From a virus (Duplodnaviria; Heunggongvirae; Uroviricota; Caudoviricetes), in IMG/VR virus record IMGVR_UViG_3300045988_163275, positions 43,752 through 107,751 of that record: a stretch of DNA of 64,000 bases, one strand, 5' to 3'. The notes beneath the pieces are model-generated. The model saw only the letters and a program-made list of their open reading frames with translations. It did no database searches and was not told the origin of the DNA. The translations under genes were made by a program, and so were the position numbers. Below, piece by piece: positions 24,363 through 64,000 of this stretch; positions within the stretch are counted from its first letter, which is position 1, and each line of letters begins with the position of its first letter.

Positions 24363-25049
24363 ATGTACTCACCTTGGATATTTCCTGACAAAGCAAAGTT
24401 CGGTCGAGTCGTGCCGAAGAACAAAATATACGAACACAGCGCGGCAAGCGCTGGATTGAAGTCACTTTTTGTAGAGCAAGTAGAGCAAATCCTTTGGGCT
24501 TACAAGCTATCGCCTAGCACGCTGAATATTCCTCAAACCAGTGAGGTCAGTGAAATACAGGTTTTCAGTGTGAAGCTTAAAGGTGACTCGATAGACGACA
24601 GCGTACTAAAAGCCATTGATTTGGCGATACCTTTTCCCATTCTATTTGAGGTATGGGAAGCTCGCGGTGAGCAAGGCCACTACGTTGCTTGCTATAAGCG
24701 TAAGGCAGAAAATGATCAGTCAAAATGGTTTTGTAGCCGCTATTTACGCTCAGAAACCTTCTATTCAAGTGATTCATTAGCAGTGACTTCAGAAGTTTTG
24801 GGGTTGCCTACCGCCATCGATATGGCGGAGCTGTATCAAAAGCTTCTTACTCGCTTGTTACCCATACCCCAACGAGCCGCTGAGAGTATTGAAGAGGTCA
24901 TTGAACGCTTGATGGCAATTCAGGCATTGGAAAAGCAAATCTCGCAATATAAGAAGAAGGTTCATGCCGAGAAACAGTTTAACCGCAAGGTTGAGCTCAA
25001 TAAGCAGTTAAAGAATTTAAGGTGCGAGCTTCAAGAGTTACTCGCATAA
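24363..25049 (+). CDS. hypothetical protein, translationally coupled to the SNF2 helicase gene
   Basis: 228-aa ORF starting 4 bp after helicase stop; C-terminal coiled-coil-like region; no motif I can name. Confidence 0.55.
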   Translation: MYSPWIFPDKAKFGRVVPKNKIYEHSAASAGLKSLFVEQVEQILWAYKLSPSTLNIPQTSEVSEIQVFSVKLKGDSIDDSVLKAIDLAIPFPILFEVWEARGEQGHYVACYKRKAENDQSKWFCSRYLRSETFYSSDSLAVTSEVLGLPTAIDMAELYQKLLTRLLPIPQRAAESIEEVIERLMAIQALEKQISQYKKKVHAEKQFNRKVELNKQLKNLRCELQELLA

Positions 25050-25122
25050 AGAATAAACAATTTCAATCAGTTAAATAGTGCCACATGCTTTTTATGCAAG
25101 GCATCACGCAAAAGGTGAACAC

Positions 25123-27045
25123 ATGGACAAATTAAAGATGCACAGCCCCGACATGACGCAGCAAAACATAGAGAAAATTCAGGCGTTGTTTCCGAACTGC
25201 GTGACGGAATCAAGAGGAGCTAACGGAGAGCTAAAGTTAGTCATTGATTTTGACCAACTTAAACAAGAGCTATCAAATTCAATCGTTGAAGGCCCGCAAG
25301 AGCGCTATCAGCTGAACTGGCCCGGTAAGCGAGAAGCACTACTAACAGCGAACGCACCTATTGCAAAAACATTAAGACCTTGTCGAGAAGAAAGTGTTAA
25401 TTTTGATACCACAGAAAACCTCTTTATTGAAGGTGATAACCTTGATGCGCTAAAAATGTTGCAAGAAACCTATTTGGGCAAGGTTAAGGTGATTTATATA
25501 GATCCGCCCTATAATACGGGTAAGGATTTTATATACGAAGACGATTTTGCTGAAAATTCTGATGGGTTTTTGAAGCGGTCAAATCAAAAGGATGAAGAAG
25601 GCAATCGCCTTGTAGCCAATACCGATTCCAACGGTCGCTTTCACTCAGACTGGTTGAGCATGATATTTTCGAGACTTAAACTTGCACGCAATATACTAAG
25701 TAGTGATGGAATTATCTTTATTAGTATAGATGAAAACGAGCTTGATAACCTCTTGAAAATAGGAAAGGAAATATTTGGTGAAGAGAACCACATAACTACG
25801 TTTTGTTGGGAAAAAAAGAAGAAACCATCTTTTCTTAATAAAAATGTAGGTTCGAAATTCGAGTATATTGTCACCTTTTCAAAGAATCGTGATTACACAG
25901 GTGCATTTTCCATTGATCTTACAACTGAAGGTAAAAAGTACCCCCTGAATAATGCAGGGAACTCACTCGGAAACCTTGTTTTTCCAGCAGGTTCGGTACG
26001 ATTCAACTTGCCAGACCAGATTATAGAACCGCAAGATATGTCTGAGGGTAAAATAAAAACCAGGTTAATTAATAGGTTGGAAATAATTGGAGGTAAAAAC
26101 GTTAATGAATTTATCCTTGAGGGTGAATGGAGATATTCTCAGAATAGATTAAATGAAATTCTAGAAAATCGAGAAGAAATTATAATCAGCAAAGTTCCGT
26201 TTAGGCCAAATCATGTAAAAGCAGGAGGTGAGATAAAAAAAATGCACAACCTCCTAAGTGTCGCTCATTATAAAGTTTCAACTAATGAGGATGCGGATGC
26301 CGAAAGTTCAGAGTTGATGGGGAATAAATACTTTGATTACACCAAGCCTTCAAATTTAATCAAACTATTAATCCAAGCAATAACTTATGACGATCAAGAA
26401 TGTCTAGTATTAGATTTTTTTGCGGGTTCATCAACAACCGCCCATGCCGTGATGCAACTTAATGCAGAAGATGGCGGAAATCGAAAATTTATCATGGTTC
26501 AGTTGCCTGAAGAGTGTGATAAAAAATCAGAAGCCTTCAAAGCTGGCTACAAAACAATTGCTGAGATATCAAAAGAACGCATCCGCCGTGCTGGTGCAAA
26601 AATATTAGAAGGGGAGTGCCACAAAGACTGGAATAAAGACGTTGGTTTCCGAGTGCTTAAAGTTGATACATCCAATATGGCCGATGTCTACTACTCGCCA
26701 GAGCAGGTTTCTCAGGGTTCGTTAGACTTATTGGTAGATAATATTAAATCAGACCGCACTGATGAAGATTTACTTTTCCAGGTTCTACTTGATTGGGGCG
26801 TCGATTTAACCTTGCCAATTAGAAAAGAAACGATTCAAGGTAAATCGGTATTCTTTGTCGATGATGATGCACTGGTGGCCTGTTTTGATCTGCGCATAAA
26901 TGAAGCTTTGATTAAAGAGTTAGCCATAAAAGAACCTCTTCGCGTAGTGTTCCGTGATGACGGCTTTGAATCTGATGCAGTAAAAATCAATGCTGAGCAG
27001 ATTTTCAAGCAAGTGTCGCCATATACTGAAGTTAAAGCGATTTAA
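25123..27045 (+). CDS. N6-adenine DNA methyltransferase, beta-class (Type III Mod-like)
   Basis: Catalytic motif [12 protein letters not shown] near N-terminus and AdoMet motif [14 protein letters not shown] near C-terminus (IV before I order); start at ATG 25123 with AAAGGTGA RBS. Confidence 0.85.
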
Positions 27046-27140
27046 GGGGGGAGCATGACAAATTTTACCGGATTAAAATTTGCACACAGCCTTGTCGCAG
27101 ACAAGGTGTGCCCAAAGGGTTGCGTACAGGGAGGTGCGCA

Positions 27141-30100
27141 ATGAAACTTAAATTCAAAGTCCAGCCTTATCAAACTGTTGCCGTAGAGTCGGTTGTTGAC
27201 TGCTTTGCGGGGCAACCTAATACCTCCGGTATAACCTACCGAATCGATCCTGGCATTGCCAAAGATAAATTTGGCAATGCTGGCTGGGATATGAGTGACC
27301 AGGATGGGTTTAAAAATGCTGAACTTGCGATCACTGAATCGCAGTTATTGCAAAATATCCATGGTGTTCAAAGTAGACAGAACCTCCCTGTTTCAGAAGC
27401 GTTAGCCAGCAATGCTAGCTCTAAGATTAATCTCGATGTTGAAATGGAAACCGGTACAGGTAAGACATATTGCTACATCAAAACTATCTTTGAGATGAAT
27501 AAACGCTATGGCTGGAGCAAATTTATTATCGTAGTGCCTAGCATTGCCATTCGTGAAGGTGTTTACAAGTCGCTACAAATCACAGGTGAGCATTTTGCCC
27601 AGAATTACAACGGTAAAAAGGCACGGTTTTTCATCTATAACTCAAAACAATTGCACCAGTTAGAGAGTTTTTCTTCTGACAGTGGCATCAATGTCATGAT
27701 CATTAATATTCAAGCCTTTAATGCATCAGGAAAAGACAATCGACGTATTTATGAAGAGTTGGATGACTTCCAGTCTAGGCGTCCTATTGATGTTATTAGT
27801 GCAAACCGTCCAATCCTGATTTTGGATGAGCCGCAGAAGATGGAAGGTAAGAAGACATTAGATGCCTTAGCCAAATTCAAACCACTGATGGTACTTCGAT
27901 ATTCGGCCACGCATAAGACAACACATAATAAGGTGCATCGTCTGGATGCTCTTGACGCTTATAACAATAAGCTGGTTAAGAAAATTGCAGTTCGTGGTAT
28001 CTCAGTAAAGGGTTTAGCGGGCACTACAGCCTATCTATATCTGGAATCCATCGAAATCTCAAAAAAAATGCCAGTGGCTCGTATAGAGATCGAGGTTAAA
28101 CAACAAAATGGCATCAAACGCATACCCAAGAAGGTCACTAAGGGCGATAATCTTTTTGATCTTAGTAATGGTTTGGACCAGTACCGTGATTTTGTGGTTA
28201 CTGATGTCAACGCGATTAACGACACAGTTGAATTCAAAAATGGCCATGTTTTAACCGCGGGCGATGCCACGGGAGACGTGACCGAAGAGACCATTCGCCG
28301 CATACAGATTCGCGAGACAATTAAAGCACACCTTGAAAAAGAAAAAATACTTTTTAACCAGGGTATAAAGGTTCTCTCTCTCTTTTTTATTGACGAAGTC
28401 GCAAAGTATAGGGACTACTCTCAAGCCGATGAAAAAGGTGATTATGCTCGCGTTTTTGAAGAAGAGTATTCCTTGCTTGTACAGGAGTATCTTGATGAGT
28501 TGTCCCTTTTGCCAAGTGAGCAGACTGATGCCTATAAAGCCTATCTATCGGCCATTGAAGGCTCTAGAACGCATAATGGTTACTTCTCAATTGATAAGAA
28601 ATCAAATCGTCTTCAGAACCCCGGCTTTAAAGTCCGTGGTGAAGATGCCGGGCTATCAGACGATGTAGATGCCTATGATTTGATTTTAAAAGATAAGGAA
28701 AAGTTACTTTCGTTTGAAGAGCCTACTCGATTTATCTTTTCACACTCGGCCTTGCGCGAGGGGTGGGATAATCCAAACGTATTTGTCATGTGTATGTTGA
28801 AACACAGCGACAATACTATCTCTCGTCGTCAAGAAGTTGGACGTGGTTTACGTCTGGCCGTCAATAAACATGGTGACAGACAAGATCATCCGGCAACTGT
28901 GCATGAAATTAATGTCTTGTCGGTGATTGCAAGTGAAAGCTATAAAGACTTTGTCACGAATCTGCAAAAAGAGATCAGCGAGTCTCTCTCAGCGAGACCT
29001 AGAAAAGCAGATGAAGCTTATTTTACGGGTAAGACAATTACAACAGCTGATGGACCTGTAGAAGTAACACCTGTCATGGCTAAGCAAATTTATAAGTATT
29101 TGCTTAAAAATGATTATACCAATGACGTTGACGATTCAATTGCGCCATCATTCCACCAGGCTAAGGCTAGTGGGCAGTTAGCGCCAATGCCTGCTGAGTT
29201 AGAGCCTTACCGCGAGCAAATATTGACCCTGATTGACGGTGTTTATAGTGAAGCGCAATTGCCAGGTGTTGGTGATGATCGTAAACCTAAAAACAATCCG
29301 TTGAATGCTAATTTTGATAAGAAAGAGTTTCAGGAGCTTTGGCACAAAATCAATCGCAAAGCGGTTTATAAGGTTGATTTTGATTCGTCTGAGTTGATTA
29401 AAAATTGTATTCGGGTACTCAATAAAGAGCTTAAGGTAACGCCTCTTCAGTACACGATTCAAGATGGTGTTCAATTGGATGGCATTACCGACGAACAACT
29501 CAAAGCTGGACAAAGTTTCAAGGTGAAAAACACTGAGACTGAAACTCATCAATCGAGCATTCATTCTGCTGTTCGTTATGACTTGGTTGGTAAGTTGGCT
29601 GAAAATTGTGTGCTGACTCGCAAAACAGTCGCCGAAATACTGATGGGTATAGAACCTGTAGTATTTGCACAATTTAAGCAGAACCCTGAGCATTTTCTCG
29701 CTGAGGCTTCACGCCTTGTGAAAGAGCAAAAGGCATCTGTGATCATCGAGAAGCTATCATATGATCCAACGAACGAATCTTATGATGTTGATATATTCAC
29801 GGCAGAGCAAAAAATCACTGATATGACAAAAGCCGTTAGTGGCGTTAATAAGCATATTTATGATTATGTTGTCGTTGATTCACAAGGCATTGAACGGGAC
29901 TTTGTTACCGAGCTTGATACAAGCAAAGAAGTCGTGGTTTATGCAAAACTGCCTCGTGGTTTTCTGATACCGACGCCTGTTGGCGACTACAACCCTGATT
30001 GGGCGATTTCTTTCAAAGAAGGAAGTGTTAAACACATTTACTTTATTGCAGAGACTAAAGGAACGATGTCTTCGCTTGAATTGCGTGGCATAGAAGATCG

Positions 30101-49677: not shown

Positions 49678-49752
49678 TGGCGATGGTGGGTGGACTCGAA
49701 CCACCGACCAGTTGATTAACAGTCAACCGCTCTACCACTGAGCTACACCATC
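49678..49752 (-). tRNA. tRNA-Asn (anticodon GTT), CCA encoded
   Basis: Cloverleaf by hand: acceptor GATGGTG/CACCATC, D-stem GCTC/GAGC, anticodon stem GTTGA/TCAAC with loop CTGTTAA, T-arm GGTGG TTCGAGT CCACC, discriminator G then CCA. Confidence 0.85.
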
Positions 49753-58634: not shown

Positions 58635-58994
58635 TTAACCTTTCTTCATCAACTCTCGTTTGATTTCGTCGGTACGCATCGTGACGTCGGCAGCAGTGAT
58701 CGCCTCGTTCAGTTTCACGATGTCTTCGATTTCCTGCGGTGACTTCTCTGCCAGATGGAAAATGGCTGCACGAATCACATCAGAACGGGTGAACTTCTCA
58801 AAACGAGGGATAAACTTCATCATCTCCAACAGTTCGAAGTACTCGTCTTCCAGCGACATTGTGCGGCTTTTAATCTTCTCTTTGCCACGAGTCGGACGCC
58901 CCTGCGGTCTGACTGGCTGGCGCAGTGGAGTGCTGCTTTTGGCCGGTTCTTTAGGCTCATTGCGCTTTGCAAGGTCTCCCATTCTCATGGACAT
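58635..58994 (-). CDS. small partition partner protein (ParG/ParB-like, putative centromere binding)
   Basis: 119-aa basic N-terminus, immediately downstream of parA-like gene with overlapping stop/start. Confidence 0.45.
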   Translation of the reverse strand: MSMRMGDLAKRNEPKEPAKSSTPLRQPVRPQGRPTRGKEKIKSRTMSLEDEYFELLEMMKFIPRFEKFTRSDVIRAAIFHLAEKSPQEIEDIVKLNEAITAADVTMRTDEIKRELMKKG

Positions 58995-59659
58995 TATTCT
59001 TCCTCCAGACTCAAGATGTAATCTACAAACTCTTCGAACTCGGCTTCTGCCTTCTTATCGCGTTCAGCGCCAGTCATTTCAAAGATAGAACGACCTGCCT
59101 CTTCCGCATCGTCATAAACGTTACGGTTGTACAGGTTAACCGGCGCAGCCTCGATGCCGAAAGTTTCGACAATTTCCTTCGCGGCCAGAATACGTGATAC
59201 CTGGGAAGGCAATGACGGACACTGGTTTATTACCGCGCGGATCTTAACTTTCTCGTTCACATTGCGAACGTTGTCGATAATCGGGTCGATATCACGCAGA
59301 GATTTCAAATCACGACGTTTAGGGCGCAGCGGGATGATGATTACATCAGCCATAAGCATCGCCAGACGCTGAATTTCGGAGTCAAAGCCACCAGCATCTA
59401 CCACTACATAATCAGTTCGCCCCTGAAGCGATTTAAGATGTTTGACGATGTCGTCCTGCACATAAGCGAACGGGATCAGTTCAAGATCTTCGTTCTGGCG
59501 ACGGTCTTCACACCAGCTGGTCGTGGTGCGCTGGATATCGATATCGGTGACGTGAACCTTCTTTTTCTTTTTAACTTTGAGACATACCGCAATTTGCTGG
59601 GCAACGGTAGATTTGCCTGGGCCGCCTTTTGTGCCGCCAACCACAATGATCTTGGTCAT
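58994..59659 (-). CDS. parA: ParA/ParF-type partition ATPase
   Basis: Deviant Walker A GGTKGGPGKST, Walker B DYVVVDAGG. Confidence 0.8.
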   Translation of the reverse strand: MTKIIVVGGTKGGPGKSTVAQQIAVCLKVKKKKKVHVTDIDIQRTTTSWCEDRRQNEDLELIPFAYVQDDIVKHLKSLQGRTDYVVVDAGGFDSEIQRLAMLMADVIIIPLRPKRRDLKSLRDIDPIIDNVRNVNEKVKIRAVINQCPSLPSQVSRILAAKEIVETFGIEAAPVNLYNRNVYDDAEEAGRSIFEMTGAERDKKAEAEFEEFVDYILSLEEE

Positions 59660-59692
59660 TGGTGAGTTTCCTTTGCGTGAATTATTGTCGTA

Positions 59693-59978: not shown

Positions 59979-60248
59979 ATGTCCGCACTGAAAAAGCAGC
60001 GCATCGATTTGAGATTAACCGATGACGATAAAAGCATCATCGAGGAAGCTGCCGCAATGTCTAACCAGAGCATTACCCAGTTCATGGTTAGCAGTGCATC
60101 CGAACGTGCCGTGAAGGTGATAGAGCAACACCGTAGACTGGTTCTAAGTGAAGAGTCCTGGAATCTGGTTATGGATGCTATAAGCAATCCTCCGGCACCG
60201 AACGACAAGCTGAAACGAGCTGCCAATCGTCTGAAAAGCATGGAGTAA
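59979..60248 (+). CDS. DUF1778-type antitoxin (TacA-like)
   Basis: 89-aa protein with RIDLRLTDDDKSIIEEAA N-terminal pattern directly upstream of a GNAT gene. Confidence 0.75.
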   Translation: MSALKKQRIDLRLTDDDKSIIEEAAAMSNQSITQFMVSSASERAVKVIEQHRRLVLSEESWNLVMDAISNPPAPNDKLKRAANRLKSME

Positions 60249-60255
60249 TTTACTC

Positions 60256-60777
60256 GTGAGCAATACGACGATCGAGATTTTCTCTGGAGAGAAAGATTAT
60301 GATCTAAACGGTTTTGATTGCGGCGAAGAGTCGCTAAACGCATTTTTGACCAACCACTTAAAAAGACAGCATGAGGGAAAAATTCTTCGCGCTTATGTGC
60401 TTTGCACTAAAGAAGAAATACCAAAGGTATTAGGTTATTACACTTTGTCAGGCAGCTGCTTTGAGAAAGAAACCTTACCTTCAAAGAGTCAGCAAAAGAA
60501 AGTGCCTTATCGGAATGTCCCAAGTATCACTTTAGGCAGACTGGCTTTGGACAAATCTCTTCAAGGTCAGGGGCTTGGCTCAATGCTTGTAACTCACGCA
60601 ATGCGTGTTGTGTACAATGCATCTCTTGCGGTAGGCATTCATGGGCTTTTCGTTGAGGCGTTGAACGATAAAGCCAGGGCGTTTTATAAAAGTTTGGGCT
60701 TTATCCAGCTGGTTGGTAACAACGATCGTTCTTTGTTCTATCCAACAAAATCTATCGAAAAATTGTTCGAAGAATAA
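60256..60777 (+). CDS. GNAT-family acetyltransferase toxin (TacT-like)
   Basis: GNAT fold motifs LQGQGLGSMLV and ARAFYKSLGF; 8-bp downstream of antitoxin, GTG start. Confidence 0.75.
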   Translation: MSNTTIEIFSGEKDYDLNGFDCGEESLNAFLTNHLKRQHEGKILRAYVLCTKEEIPKVLGYYTLSGSCFEKETLPSKSQQKKVPYRNVPSITLGRLALDKSLQGQGLGSMLVTHAMRVVYNASLAVGIHGLFVEALNDKARAFYKSLGFIQLVGNNDRSLFYPTKSIEKLFEE

Positions 60778-62362: not shown

Positions 62363-62950
62363 TTACTCTGCTGGTATTGTTGGCCAGTCAATATCCGGTG
62401 CCGTTGATGTGTCAATGCGGTTCAATAAAACTCTATACTTCTTCCATGCAGTCAGCAACGATGCTTCTTCCTCCGTTGCAATCTCCAAATCTACAGCATC
62501 CTGAAGTGGCGCAATGTGCTCGCTGGCTACCTGCATCAGACTTTTTTTTGTTTCTTCCGCTTCCCGTATCTGAAACAATTTTTCTGTTTCCTCATCCTTC
62601 TCCCAGGATGTGCCGTCCCACTTCTGATATTCCCCATCCGGTGATAACCAGGTGACATTTTCCGGTAATGGCCCAAGTTCAGAAATAAACAACGCGTCCC
62701 CTGATTCCACGTCATAGACCGTTTTACCCCTGTGGTCTTCAACGAGACTCCATGATTTATTTTCGCTATTGAATACGGCCACGAAGCCAGCAGGTACATC
62801 CGGTGGCGCTATATCCGTAGAATAAGCTGGCAGCCCTGTATGAGGTGGAATATATGCATCACCTTCACCAATAAATTCATTGGTTCCGGCCAACAGATTA
62901 TAAATTTTTATGGTCCGTGGTTGTTCACTCATTGTGAAGTCCATGTTCAC
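62363..62950 (-). CDS. tail fiber assembly protein (Tfa-like chaperone)
   Basis: N-terminal [28 protein letters not shown] and C-terminal WPTIP typical of Tfa proteins. Confidence 0.75.
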
Positions 62951-62952
62951 CT

Positions 62953-63855
62953 CTACTTAATATCAAAGACAGTATGTTGTTTATTGAGTGTATGGGTGTG
63001 AGCACCAACAGTGATGCCCCTTCCGTGATTATATGCGCCAGTGGCGATATTGCTTCCGGTATTTTCCGGATTAATCCGGTGTATATGCGAACCAGGGCGA
63101 AACCGGTTATTAGCCTGATGTTGTATCAGTACATCATCAGCCTGATGTTCAGGGTTAATACAGATCTGCCCTGAACGTGAGCAATACGTCCGGGAATCGC
63201 CACAGCCAATATATTTAGTATCCGCATAACGGCAAACAGAATTACCTGGACAGTATGCATATGTGCTAAATACTGCCGACTGGCGAGATTGTGCATATTC
63301 CCAGTTAATTGCTTCTGTTTTTTTATTAAAGTTATCCCACGCCTGCTTCATCTGCCGGGCAACACTTTCAAACGGCACCTGACCGCATCCGGCCCCCATT
63401 GCAGGGAATACGACCGTTTTTATTTTCCTGTCTGTCGTTGCGTTTTTATTATGCTGAAAGATGGCAAGCAGAGCGGCCCAGGTTGCGTTATATACAGCCT
63501 CTGTTCCGTCAATTGTCAGCGGAACACGCATTGTTGGCGCATGTACCAGCCAGGGGTGATGATTATGCCCCGTTTCAATGACAAATGCAGAACCTACAGG
63601 CTGTTCGCCGAGATATTCACAAATAATATGATTCTGAACGCGGGACTGTAACTGAGTACCGAAGAATGCGGTAATGGCGGCATCAACGCCGCCATCCATC
63701 AAGCCGAAACTATTTGCCGCACTTACCATGCAGTCAAATTCTCTGATTGCTTCAAATGGTTTTCCGACAATATTCACATTGTCTGCATTTGCGAATACTC
63801 GCTTAAATGCTTCAGTCATTTCTTTTACTGGAGCAGAAAGAATGAGATTAATCAT
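62953..63855 (-). CDS. macro domain protein with Cys/His-rich tail-fiber-tip-like C-terminus
   Basis: Macro motifs [22 protein letters not shown] and [21 protein letters not shown]; C-terminal GAHTHTL HxH-like segment; start overlaps upstream stop (ATGA). Confidence 0.55.
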
Positions 63856-64000
63856 GCAAGCCTCACAATATAGTTAAATGCAATGTTTTTGACGGTGTTT
63901 TCCGCGTTACCAGCAGCGTTAACAGTGATGGTGTGTCCATGTGAGCCAATCGCAACGGAGTGCGTATGAGCACCAATACCGACAGTATGTGCATGTGCGC
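63853..64000 (-). CDS. tail fiber protein, C-terminal end only (5' part beyond window)
   Basis: Minus-strand translation ...[48 protein letters not shown] with HxH repeats. Confidence 0.55.

Follow-up and report, generated by a model that had tools for sequence, protein, structure and literature searches.

What would a macro domain be doing in an operon that builds tail fibres? ADP-ribose (ADPR) is read and erased chiefly by macrodomains, and one of these is encoded at such a locus in the stretch of phage DNA analysed here, a 64,000 nt window of a Caudoviricetes genome (positions 43,752 to 107,751 of IMG/VR record IMGVR_UViG_3300045988_163275; all coordinates below are those of the window). 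The open reading frame (ORF) in question encodes 300 aa and lies between a side tail fibre gene of the T4-gp37/lambda-Stf type (stf), which extends beyond the window edge, and the tail fibre assembly gene tfa; this location, noted in an original prediction made from the DNA without database searches, was borne out. The reading that we favour, at a probability of about 0.45, is that the protein is a late-expressed hydrolase or binder of ADP-ribose derivatives acting in counter-defence, in which the substrate, the role and the function of the C-terminal tail are what we infer.

The macro domain and its relatives

The macro domain was recovered by profile search at a level far above chance: Pfam Macro (PF01661) matched aa 44-169 over the whole of the model (positions 1-118 of 118) with an E-value of 5.5e-19 and 68.7 bits, relative to a cut-off of 22. 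The ORF also matches PHROG 2613, annotated as 'unknown function', at 2.6e-145. Both of the signature blocks that had been picked out beforehand are present (aa 46-61 and 149-161), and the domain is N-terminal as described; however, it spans about aa 1-195, rather than the 170 residues originally suggested. Structure prediction, which had been proposed as a check, likewise gives a macro fold: in an AlphaFold2 (AF2) model built from a 78-sequence alignment, aa 1-200 form a three-layer alpha/beta/alpha structure with a predicted local distance difference test score (pLDDT) of around 97, a run on 17 close homologues having been poor (pLDDT 59).

Both structure and profile point to the same closest relative of solved structure. 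In a Foldseek search of the PDB, the top match of the model was 1NJR, yeast Ymx7 (1.4e-11 over 201 columns), followed by TTHA0132, macroH2A, MacroD2, YmdB and DarG macrodomains; there were 203 matches at an E-value of 0.001 or below, and the top 50 listed were all macrodomains or designs based on one. The family profile also placed 1NJR first, at 1.7e-16 over profile positions 3-179. Ymx7 (YMR087W; 1NJR, 1TXZ and 1TY8) is an ADP-ribose-1''-monophosphatase, and shares with the phage protein an N-terminal beta-alpha-beta extension and the motifs VS-x-x-NS[FY]G...GG[VF]D, PT-x-x-x-P and G-x-x-TG-x-x-G-VP, despite an identity of only about 21%; unlike the phage protein, it has neither a Cys/His tail nor a phage context. 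The window protein falls short of the Macro_2 family (PF14519; 24.4 bits, relative to a cut-off of 27), of which precomputed matches are present on many close homologues. Macrodomains of the Ymx7 type bind ADP-ribose and cleave the substituent at the 1'' position of the distal ribose.

The domain is under purifying selection, with a ratio of non-synonymous to synonymous substitution rates (dN/dS) of 0.15 across aa 1-195. Loop 1 is invariant in the phage family, as are G154, A155, G156 and G158 of loop 2, the diphosphate-binding glycine loop, which aligns with GLCTGYAGVPP in Ymx7 and GTGVGGLP in TTHA0132. Across the 78 phage and cellular homologues, N48, G51, M53, G56, D58, P107, T108, M109, P112 and G158 are each at least 90% conserved, G158 being present in all 78. 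With its ADP-ribose-binding loops intact, the domain looks catalytically competent.

MacroD-type hydrolases (E. coli YmdB, human MacroD1 and MacroD2, Af1521 and the Oceanobacillus macrodomain) have the same fold and the same loop 1 signature, Nx6GG[VLI]D, but they match the phage protein at E-values of only 1e-5 to 1e-6, and differ in loop 2: theirs reads G[VIA][YF]G, whereas the phage protein has G156-C-G-Q, lacking the aromatic residue, and its cellular relatives have G-T-G-x-G. The latter are free-standing bacterial macro proteins of about 200 aa, 47-55% identical to the phage protein over aa 1-195. Such free-standing homologues occur in Chloroflexota, cyanobacteria, Acidobacteriota, Bacteroidota and Planctomycetota, along with some apparently eukaryotic multidomain proteins; the bacterial ones end at around 200-210 aa, with no Cys or HxH modules and no Tfa neighbour. 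Thermus TTHA0132 (2DX6), which groups with them, similarly lacks the tail of the phage protein. The same macro subtype is found in giant viruses and jumbo phages in BFVD. In three apparently eukaryotic proteins (P0134, P0139 and P0221), it is fused to WD40 repeats, or to segments that by eye resemble rhodanese and dual-specificity phosphatase domains. The subfamily spans bacteria, eukaryotes, giant viruses and phages.

A cassette in the late fibre operon

The start codon of the macro ORF overlaps the stop codon of the fibre gene, as the original prediction had it, in a 4 nt ATGA (63855-63852). The GAGG ribosome-binding site that precedes it (Table 1) is the same sequence that serves tfa in lambda, as seen from alignment of the stf/tfa junctions. 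Downstream, tfa does follow directly, although the reported spacing of 3 bp is only approximate, being 2 nt or 8 nt after the macro stop codon according to whether the GTG at 62950 or the ATG at 62944 is taken as the start; the ATG lies opposite Met1 of lambda Tfa in the alignment and is preceded by GAGGTG. The tfa product, of 193 or 195 aa, matches Pfam Caudo_TAP at 2.2e-44 and PHROG 105 at 5.4e-97, and the gene is about 85% identical to lambda tfa at the DNA level. The complete upstream fibre gene, as carried by the near-identical plasmid pTB212, encodes 1050 aa.

The junction was compared with those of lambda and of pRHB03-C12_2, a phage-plasmid that lacks the macro gene and whose flanks are 99.2% identical to those in the window. 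Relative to the macro-less, lambda-type stf/tfa junction, GCATAATG, there is a clean insert of approximately 0.9 kb, composed of the macro ORF and around 11 nt (TAGAGGTGAAC), between the ...GCA-stop of stf and the ATG of tfa. The insert takes the GAGG site of tfa for its own use and supplies a new GAGGTG site for tfa, which is absent from the macro-less junctions of lambda and pRHB03-C12_2. Since both the 99% identical phage-plasmid and lambda do without it, the macro gene is dispensable for fibres.

No promoter or terminator of its own was evident above chance, with four promoter-like sites relative to 4.4 expected, and one terminator-like site relative to 1.7 expected; expression is hence likely to be tied to the late fibre operon, as is also implied by the ATGA overlap and the shared ribosome-binding site. 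A promoter and terminator of its own, as in an autonomous 'moron', were rejected for the same reason, although the presence/absence polymorphism typical of morons is seen, pRHB03-C12_2 and lambda being without the gene. On the evidence of its junctions, the macro gene is an accessory part of the late fibre operon and is translationally coupled to stf.

Table 1. Coordinates of the features of the stf-macro-tfa locus in the window.
Feature	Coordinates	Strand	Detail or basis
3' end of upstream stf-type fibre ORF	63852..64000	minus	GxHxH needle repeats; TGA stop 63854-63852
GAGG ribosome-binding site for macro ORF	63861..63864	minus	5 nt upstream of macro ATG
Macro-domain ORF	62953..63855	minus	300 aa, ATG 63855-63853, TAG stop 62955-62953
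Ymx7-type macro domain, aa 1-195	63271..63855	minus	AF2, Foldseek, profile search
Loop 1, N48...D58	63682..63714	minus	MacroD-type signature Nx6GG[VLI]D (N48-x6-GGVD58)
Loop 2, G154-AGCGQVP161, diphosphate-binding glycine loop	63373..63396	minus	family alignment
Phage-specific Cys module, aa 198-241, C202-x5-C208...C225-x6-C232-x4-H237	63133..63264	minus	family alignment
Variable G-x-H-x-H repeat tail, aa 255-300 (GSHIH...GAYNH...GAHTH)	62956..63093	minus	hhalign to Stf needle
GAGGTG ribosome-binding site for tfa	62948..62953	minus	overlaps macro stop codon
tfa, tail fibre assembly gene, lambda Tfa / T4 gp38 type	62363..62944	minus	Caudo_TAP, PHROG 105

The window region is 99.4% identical to IncFIB phage-plasmids of about 110 kb from E. 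coli and E. fergusonii, such as pTB212, which combine lambda-like tail genes with SSU5-type replication genes, and the macro protein is 98% identical to a RefSeq 'macro domain-containing protein'. The family extends much further: 1,697 matches at an E-value of 0.001 or below were found among representatives of 90% identity clusters, from E. coli, Salmonella, Erwinia, Citrobacter and Enterobacter, and 128 of 5,426 complete E. coli genomes carry the gene (at 109 chromosomal and 22 plasmid places). The Stf-macro-Tfa triad is present in four unrelated types of temperate phage, lambdoid, P2-like, P1-like and SSU5-like, its carriers including the lambdoid Gifsy-1, the P2-like SEN4 and SEN5 and a P1-like plasmid prophage; it is also found in Chuche, at a locus with a P2-type baseplate and fibre arrangement.

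In all of the enterobacterial loci with enough sequence, around 75 in number, the fibre ORF ends in ...NIA[FY]NY[IL]VRLA*, the macro gene begins with the 4 nt ATGA overlap, and the start of a Tfa homologue lies at -11 to +33 nt from the macro stop codon. The gene occupies the conserved g37/g38 (stf/tfa) junction of the T4 and lambda arrangement. When 120 IMG/VR contigs bearing an Stf 3' end were examined, 112 had tfa directly downstream, seven had the macro gene, and in the remaining one tfa was cut at the end of the contig. The idea that this junction is a general hotspot for cargo was consequently rejected, as nothing but the macro gene was carried at any of the 120. Judged from the sequences available, Stf-macro-Tfa is one specific cassette, spread by recombination among four phage lineages.

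Decayed or rearranged copies were also encountered. A second, broken macro copy lies upstream of an intact cassette in one contig (L123, 4069-5288): it is frameshifted, lacks the Cys/His tail, and has macro aa ~53-161 fused in frame to Tfa aa 27-194, but as the contig contains an N, this macro-Tfa deletion fusion could be an assembly error. Three 'hypothetical proteins' of 101-117 aa in Salmonella (P0271, P0290 and P0273) are N-terminally truncated macro pieces, starting from Met169 or later, the first two each being found in about 100 Salmonella contigs. These suggest that the gene is often decayed or miscalled in Salmonella prophages.

Some features of the surrounding DNA are recorded here for completeness. 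The Rfam model IS009 (RF02111) matches 62403-62601 on the minus strand with 191 bits, relative to a gathering score of 117, wholly within tfa; this 'sRNA' family model evidently corresponds to conserved tfa coding DNA. Directly downstream of the fibre and lysis block, a DUF1778 antitoxin and GNAT-family toxin pair (59979-60777, plus strand) adjoins a ParA-like ATPase ORF (58994-59659, minus strand), the names being those of the RefSeq annotation of pTB212. ARAGORN calls a tRNA-Lys(ttt) at 59591-59671 on the plus strand, overlapping the ParA-like ORF on the opposite strand; it is not reported by the Rfam tRNA model at its gathering score and is probably a false positive, while a tRNA-Asn at 49678-49752 (minus strand) is called by both. 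Plasmid pTB212 itself carries a complete yehD-type chaperone-usher fimbrial operon (24879-29688), with IS3 remnants and toxin-antitoxin pairs on its flanks; among phage-plasmids, this is an uncommon cargo.

The Cys/His-rich C-terminal extension

Beyond the macro domain, aa 198-300 form an extension specific to the phage proteins; sequence past aa ~200 was found only in those of enterobacterial phages, and the cellular homologues have no Cys module. The original prediction of a Cys/His-rich C terminus with fibre-tip-like HxH motifs holds, there being five Cys and eight His in the last 105 aa, but two distinct parts can be recognised. In the Cys module, C202, C208, C225, C232 and H237 are invariant among 17 diverse family members; the module is under purifying selection (dN/dS = 0.28), and is modelled as two beta-hairpins and one helix with a pLDDT of 63-82. 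It has no match in Pfam or the PDB, and when sought outside the family, by tblastn against 50,697 phage genomes and in a set of 5.8 billion proteins, it was detected only in macro genes and in fragments of the family, respectively.

The second part is a repeat tail of two to four G-x-H-x-H units, varying in number and length between family members, of which the first is at least 90% conserved. It evolves with a dN/dS of 0.62, has a pLDDT below 50 in the monomer model, and ends in ...HTVFDIK. Comparison of its profile with the needle repeats of the flanking Stf using hhalign gave a probability of 92.9% (E-value 3.8e-7) over 30 columns, the two sharing a 9-residue spacing; the macro tail contains two instances of the motif G[AS]HxH, against a single one in all the other 149 ORFs of at least 80 aa in the window combined (28,491 aa). 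The Stf tip profile in turn matches the T4 gp37 tip (PDB 2XGF) at 3.9e-40. Iron is bound by the HxH motifs of that needle, along the axis of the trimer. Hence the repeats and their spacing resemble those of the T4 gp37/lambda Stf tips that are accompanied by gp38/Tfa, but the likeness is limited to this 30-column match, with no shaft, head domain or collar end. The tail profile had no match in the PDB, fibre structures included. Derivation of the tail from the adjacent stf 3' end by a recent duplication was rejected, as blastn-short found only chance matches of 9-14 nt. Metal binding is probable for both the Cys4 module and the GxHxH repeats that resemble the gp37 needle.

An independent view of the extension comes from Izhakiella, in which the Cys module has been swapped for an unrelated Cys/His-rich segment, CGC..CDCGCG..CRC plus HxH repeats. 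Izhakiella australiensis has three macro copies on three contigs (L007, L008 and L009), each with the replaced module. The first 590 nt and last 59 nt of the gene are homologous to that of Erwinia; the DNA of nt 590-845 is unrelated and the reading frame is unchanged, so that a frameshift of the usual C terminus was rejected in favour of module replacement. Searches with the new module produced non-significant matches only (E-values of about 1-6), 19 of the 20 listed being in tail or tail fibre genes. The exchange of one Cys/His-rich module for another suggests selection for a metal-binding property; as the Stf tip and Tfa remain as they are in Erwinia, it also argues against specific co-evolution with either.

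The presence of the tail also appears to go with the position in the fibre locus. The closest relative without one, P0121, is 63% identical to the macro domain and is found in another phage (L167, 2104-5487), between a ParB_N/methyltransferase pair and a second ParB_N gene and just ahead of a GpA-type terminase, in what resembles an accessory island or one of the anti-defence type.

One interpretation of these data is that the gene is a hitch-hiker: a cellular-type macro gene that landed in the 3' part of a gp37/Stf-type fibre gene, kept the end of the fibre as its Cys/His tail, and persists and spreads because it lies between the stf 3' end and tfa, recombination arms that are among those most widely shared by enterobacterial phages. 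The enzyme would then have a generic job, such as the removal of ADPR-1''-phosphate or O-acetyl-ADPR, largely or wholly unconnected with fibres or defence. This accords with the relaxed selection on the repeat tail, with the near-identity of the flanks across phage types and with the frequency of N-terminally truncated fragments in Salmonella. The length, repeat number and stop position of the tail also vary, that of Salmonella reading into the start of tfa, and single HxH units are broken in several lineages (GAYNH in the window, GTPTH elsewhere). However, a remnant would not be expected to contain a Cys module under purifying selection with four invariant Cys, nor a first GxHxH unit that is so well conserved, and the replacement in Izhakiella being again Cys/His-rich points to selection on that property. 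Furthermore, no DNA similarity to the flanking stf is left, and neither the phage genomes nor the protein set yielded a fibre with a Cys module of this kind. We therefore consider hitch-hiking somewhat unlikely.

A second interpretation takes the fibre likeness at face value. With the help of Tfa, the GxHxH repeats would form a short, iron-bound, gp37-like trimeric needle, which would dock the macro domain on the side tail fibre or retain it in the particle, making it a virion-associated enzyme. The shared repeat spacing, the homology of the Stf tip to the iron-binding gp37 needle and the strict co-translation with Stf and Tfa are all consistent with this, as is the predicted disorder of the tail as a monomer, which would be expected if it folds only as an oligomer. 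Yet fibres attach through their N termini, and no attachment domain is present: neither an N-terminal attachment region, nor a fibre shaft, nor a C-terminal collar segment was detected in the macro protein, the N-terminal 195 aa of which are globular. Nor is there a known way for a fibre-tip protein to enter the cytoplasm, or a known ADP-ribose substrate outside the cell; fibres work without the protein, and in the Izhakiella swap the module does not co-vary with its supposed partners. Such a virion-borne role is, in our view, doubtful. The related suggestion in the original prediction, of a novel receptor-binding tip, is unlikely for the same structural reason, and because free-standing cellular enzymes share about 50% identity with aa 1-195 of the protein and the gene is dispensable.

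A third possibility is that the protein assists fibre assembly, the Cys/His tail acting as a metallochaperone or competitor that delivers Fe or Zn to the Stf needle or tunes Tfa, and the macro domain serving as a regulatory, nucleotide-sensing module. The gene does lie between client and chaperone, and His/Cys-rich tails are typical of metallochaperones; however, most Stf/Tfa pairs have no macro gene, the catalytic-type macro loops are strictly conserved, and no precedent is known. This explanation seems very improbable.

A late macrodomain with a proposed role in counter-defence

Our preferred reading, of a hydrolase or binder directed against an ADP-ribose-based defence, a role already raised in the original prediction, can be put as follows. 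Inserted precisely between stf and tfa and optional for fibre assembly, the macro gene would be translated late through coupling, so that its product appears alongside the fibre and chaperone and in similar amounts. The protein would act in the cytoplasm on 1''-substituted ADP-ribose species, whether a modification of protein or nucleic acid or a small-molecule signal; by removing an ADP-ribose modification, or by destroying or sequestering a molecule derived from ADP-ribose, it would keep phage production from being aborted. Through the Cys4 module and GxHxH repeats, the protein may oligomerise or associate with the machinery of Stf/Tfa assembly.

A functional precedent exists for a phage macrodomain directed against an ADP-ribosylating defence: the AdfM macrodomains, including Tk.4 of T4 and gp104 of the chimallivirus PhiKZ, reverse DNA ADP-ribosylation by DarT2. 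Unlike the window protein, these are DarG-like, are encoded outside fibre operons and have no fibre-like tail. The Tad1 and Tad2 sponges and the RyDEP glycosidase, with folds unrelated to macrodomains, could be functional analogues in that they act on 1''-linked ADP-ribose signals.

Several observations weigh against a role in counter-defence. Membership of the DarG/AdfM group itself was rejected, the NCBIfam DarG model scoring 13 bits relative to a cut-off of 250; the PADLOC DarG model reaches an E-value of 0.0026 over 39 residues only, and a homologue of Tk.4 is a distant fold match, ranked 28th at 5e-5. The neighbours of the cellular homologues give no clue to a substrate, none being conserved at more than 10 of 72 loci. 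Known anti-defence genes are usually early, whereas this one is late, and a junction that carries no other cargo is not a typical anti-defence hotspot. The fibre-like tail is left unexplained by a purely cytoplasmic enzyme, and full-text literature searches found no functional study or proteomic record of the family. In the first 50 kb of pTB212, no ART, TIR or SIR2 partner is annotated.

A more specific form of the counter-defence reading would account for the location as that of a 'trigger-linked antidote'. Here Stf-Tfa, or its assembly, would be sensed by an ADP-ribose-based immune system, and the co-translated macrodomain would counter the response, by cleaving or soaking up His-ADPR or 2'/3'cADPR, or by reversing the resulting ADP-ribosylation, with the needle-like HxH tail holding it where the trigger forms. 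Two preprints from 2026 are treated as leads only: one reports that the side tail fibre and its chaperone determine the sensitivity of Pseudomonas phages to type II Thoeris, which signals through His-ADPR, and the other that RyDEP alone is known to cleave 2'/3'cADPR. We regard this form as quite improbable.

A macro domain in a fibre locus is indeed unusual, as had been remarked, but it was already in the databases: the macro assignment itself is public, in the RefSeq name and in the Gifsy-1 record, which notes pfam01661. In the literature, no description was found of a strict Stf-macro-Tfa cassette across phage types, nor of the enzyme as one of Ymx7 rather than DarG type, nor of a chimeric tail of Cys4 and needle repeats.

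Counter-defence by a phage macrodomain has only just been demonstrated, in the case of AdfM and DarT2, and the present family stands apart from that example in its Ymx7-like subtype, its fusion to Cys4 and needle-repeat modules and its location in a late fibre-chaperone cassette. Phages of E. coli and Salmonella of the lambdoid, P2-like, P1-like and SSU5-like types, Gifsy-1 among them, exchange the cassette freely by recombination, and its functions are readily testable, as the carrier phages are genetically tractable. Were the enzyme virion-borne, it would be displayed through a fibre-type needle; were it an antidote linked to its trigger, it would be unprecedented both as an inhibitor of ADPR signalling built on a macrodomain and as a counter-defence gene lying physically within the locus that supplies its trigger. 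If an immune signal or modification is its target, the family would represent a new class of enzyme in the anti-defence repertoire, and an example of structural operons carrying their own antidotes.

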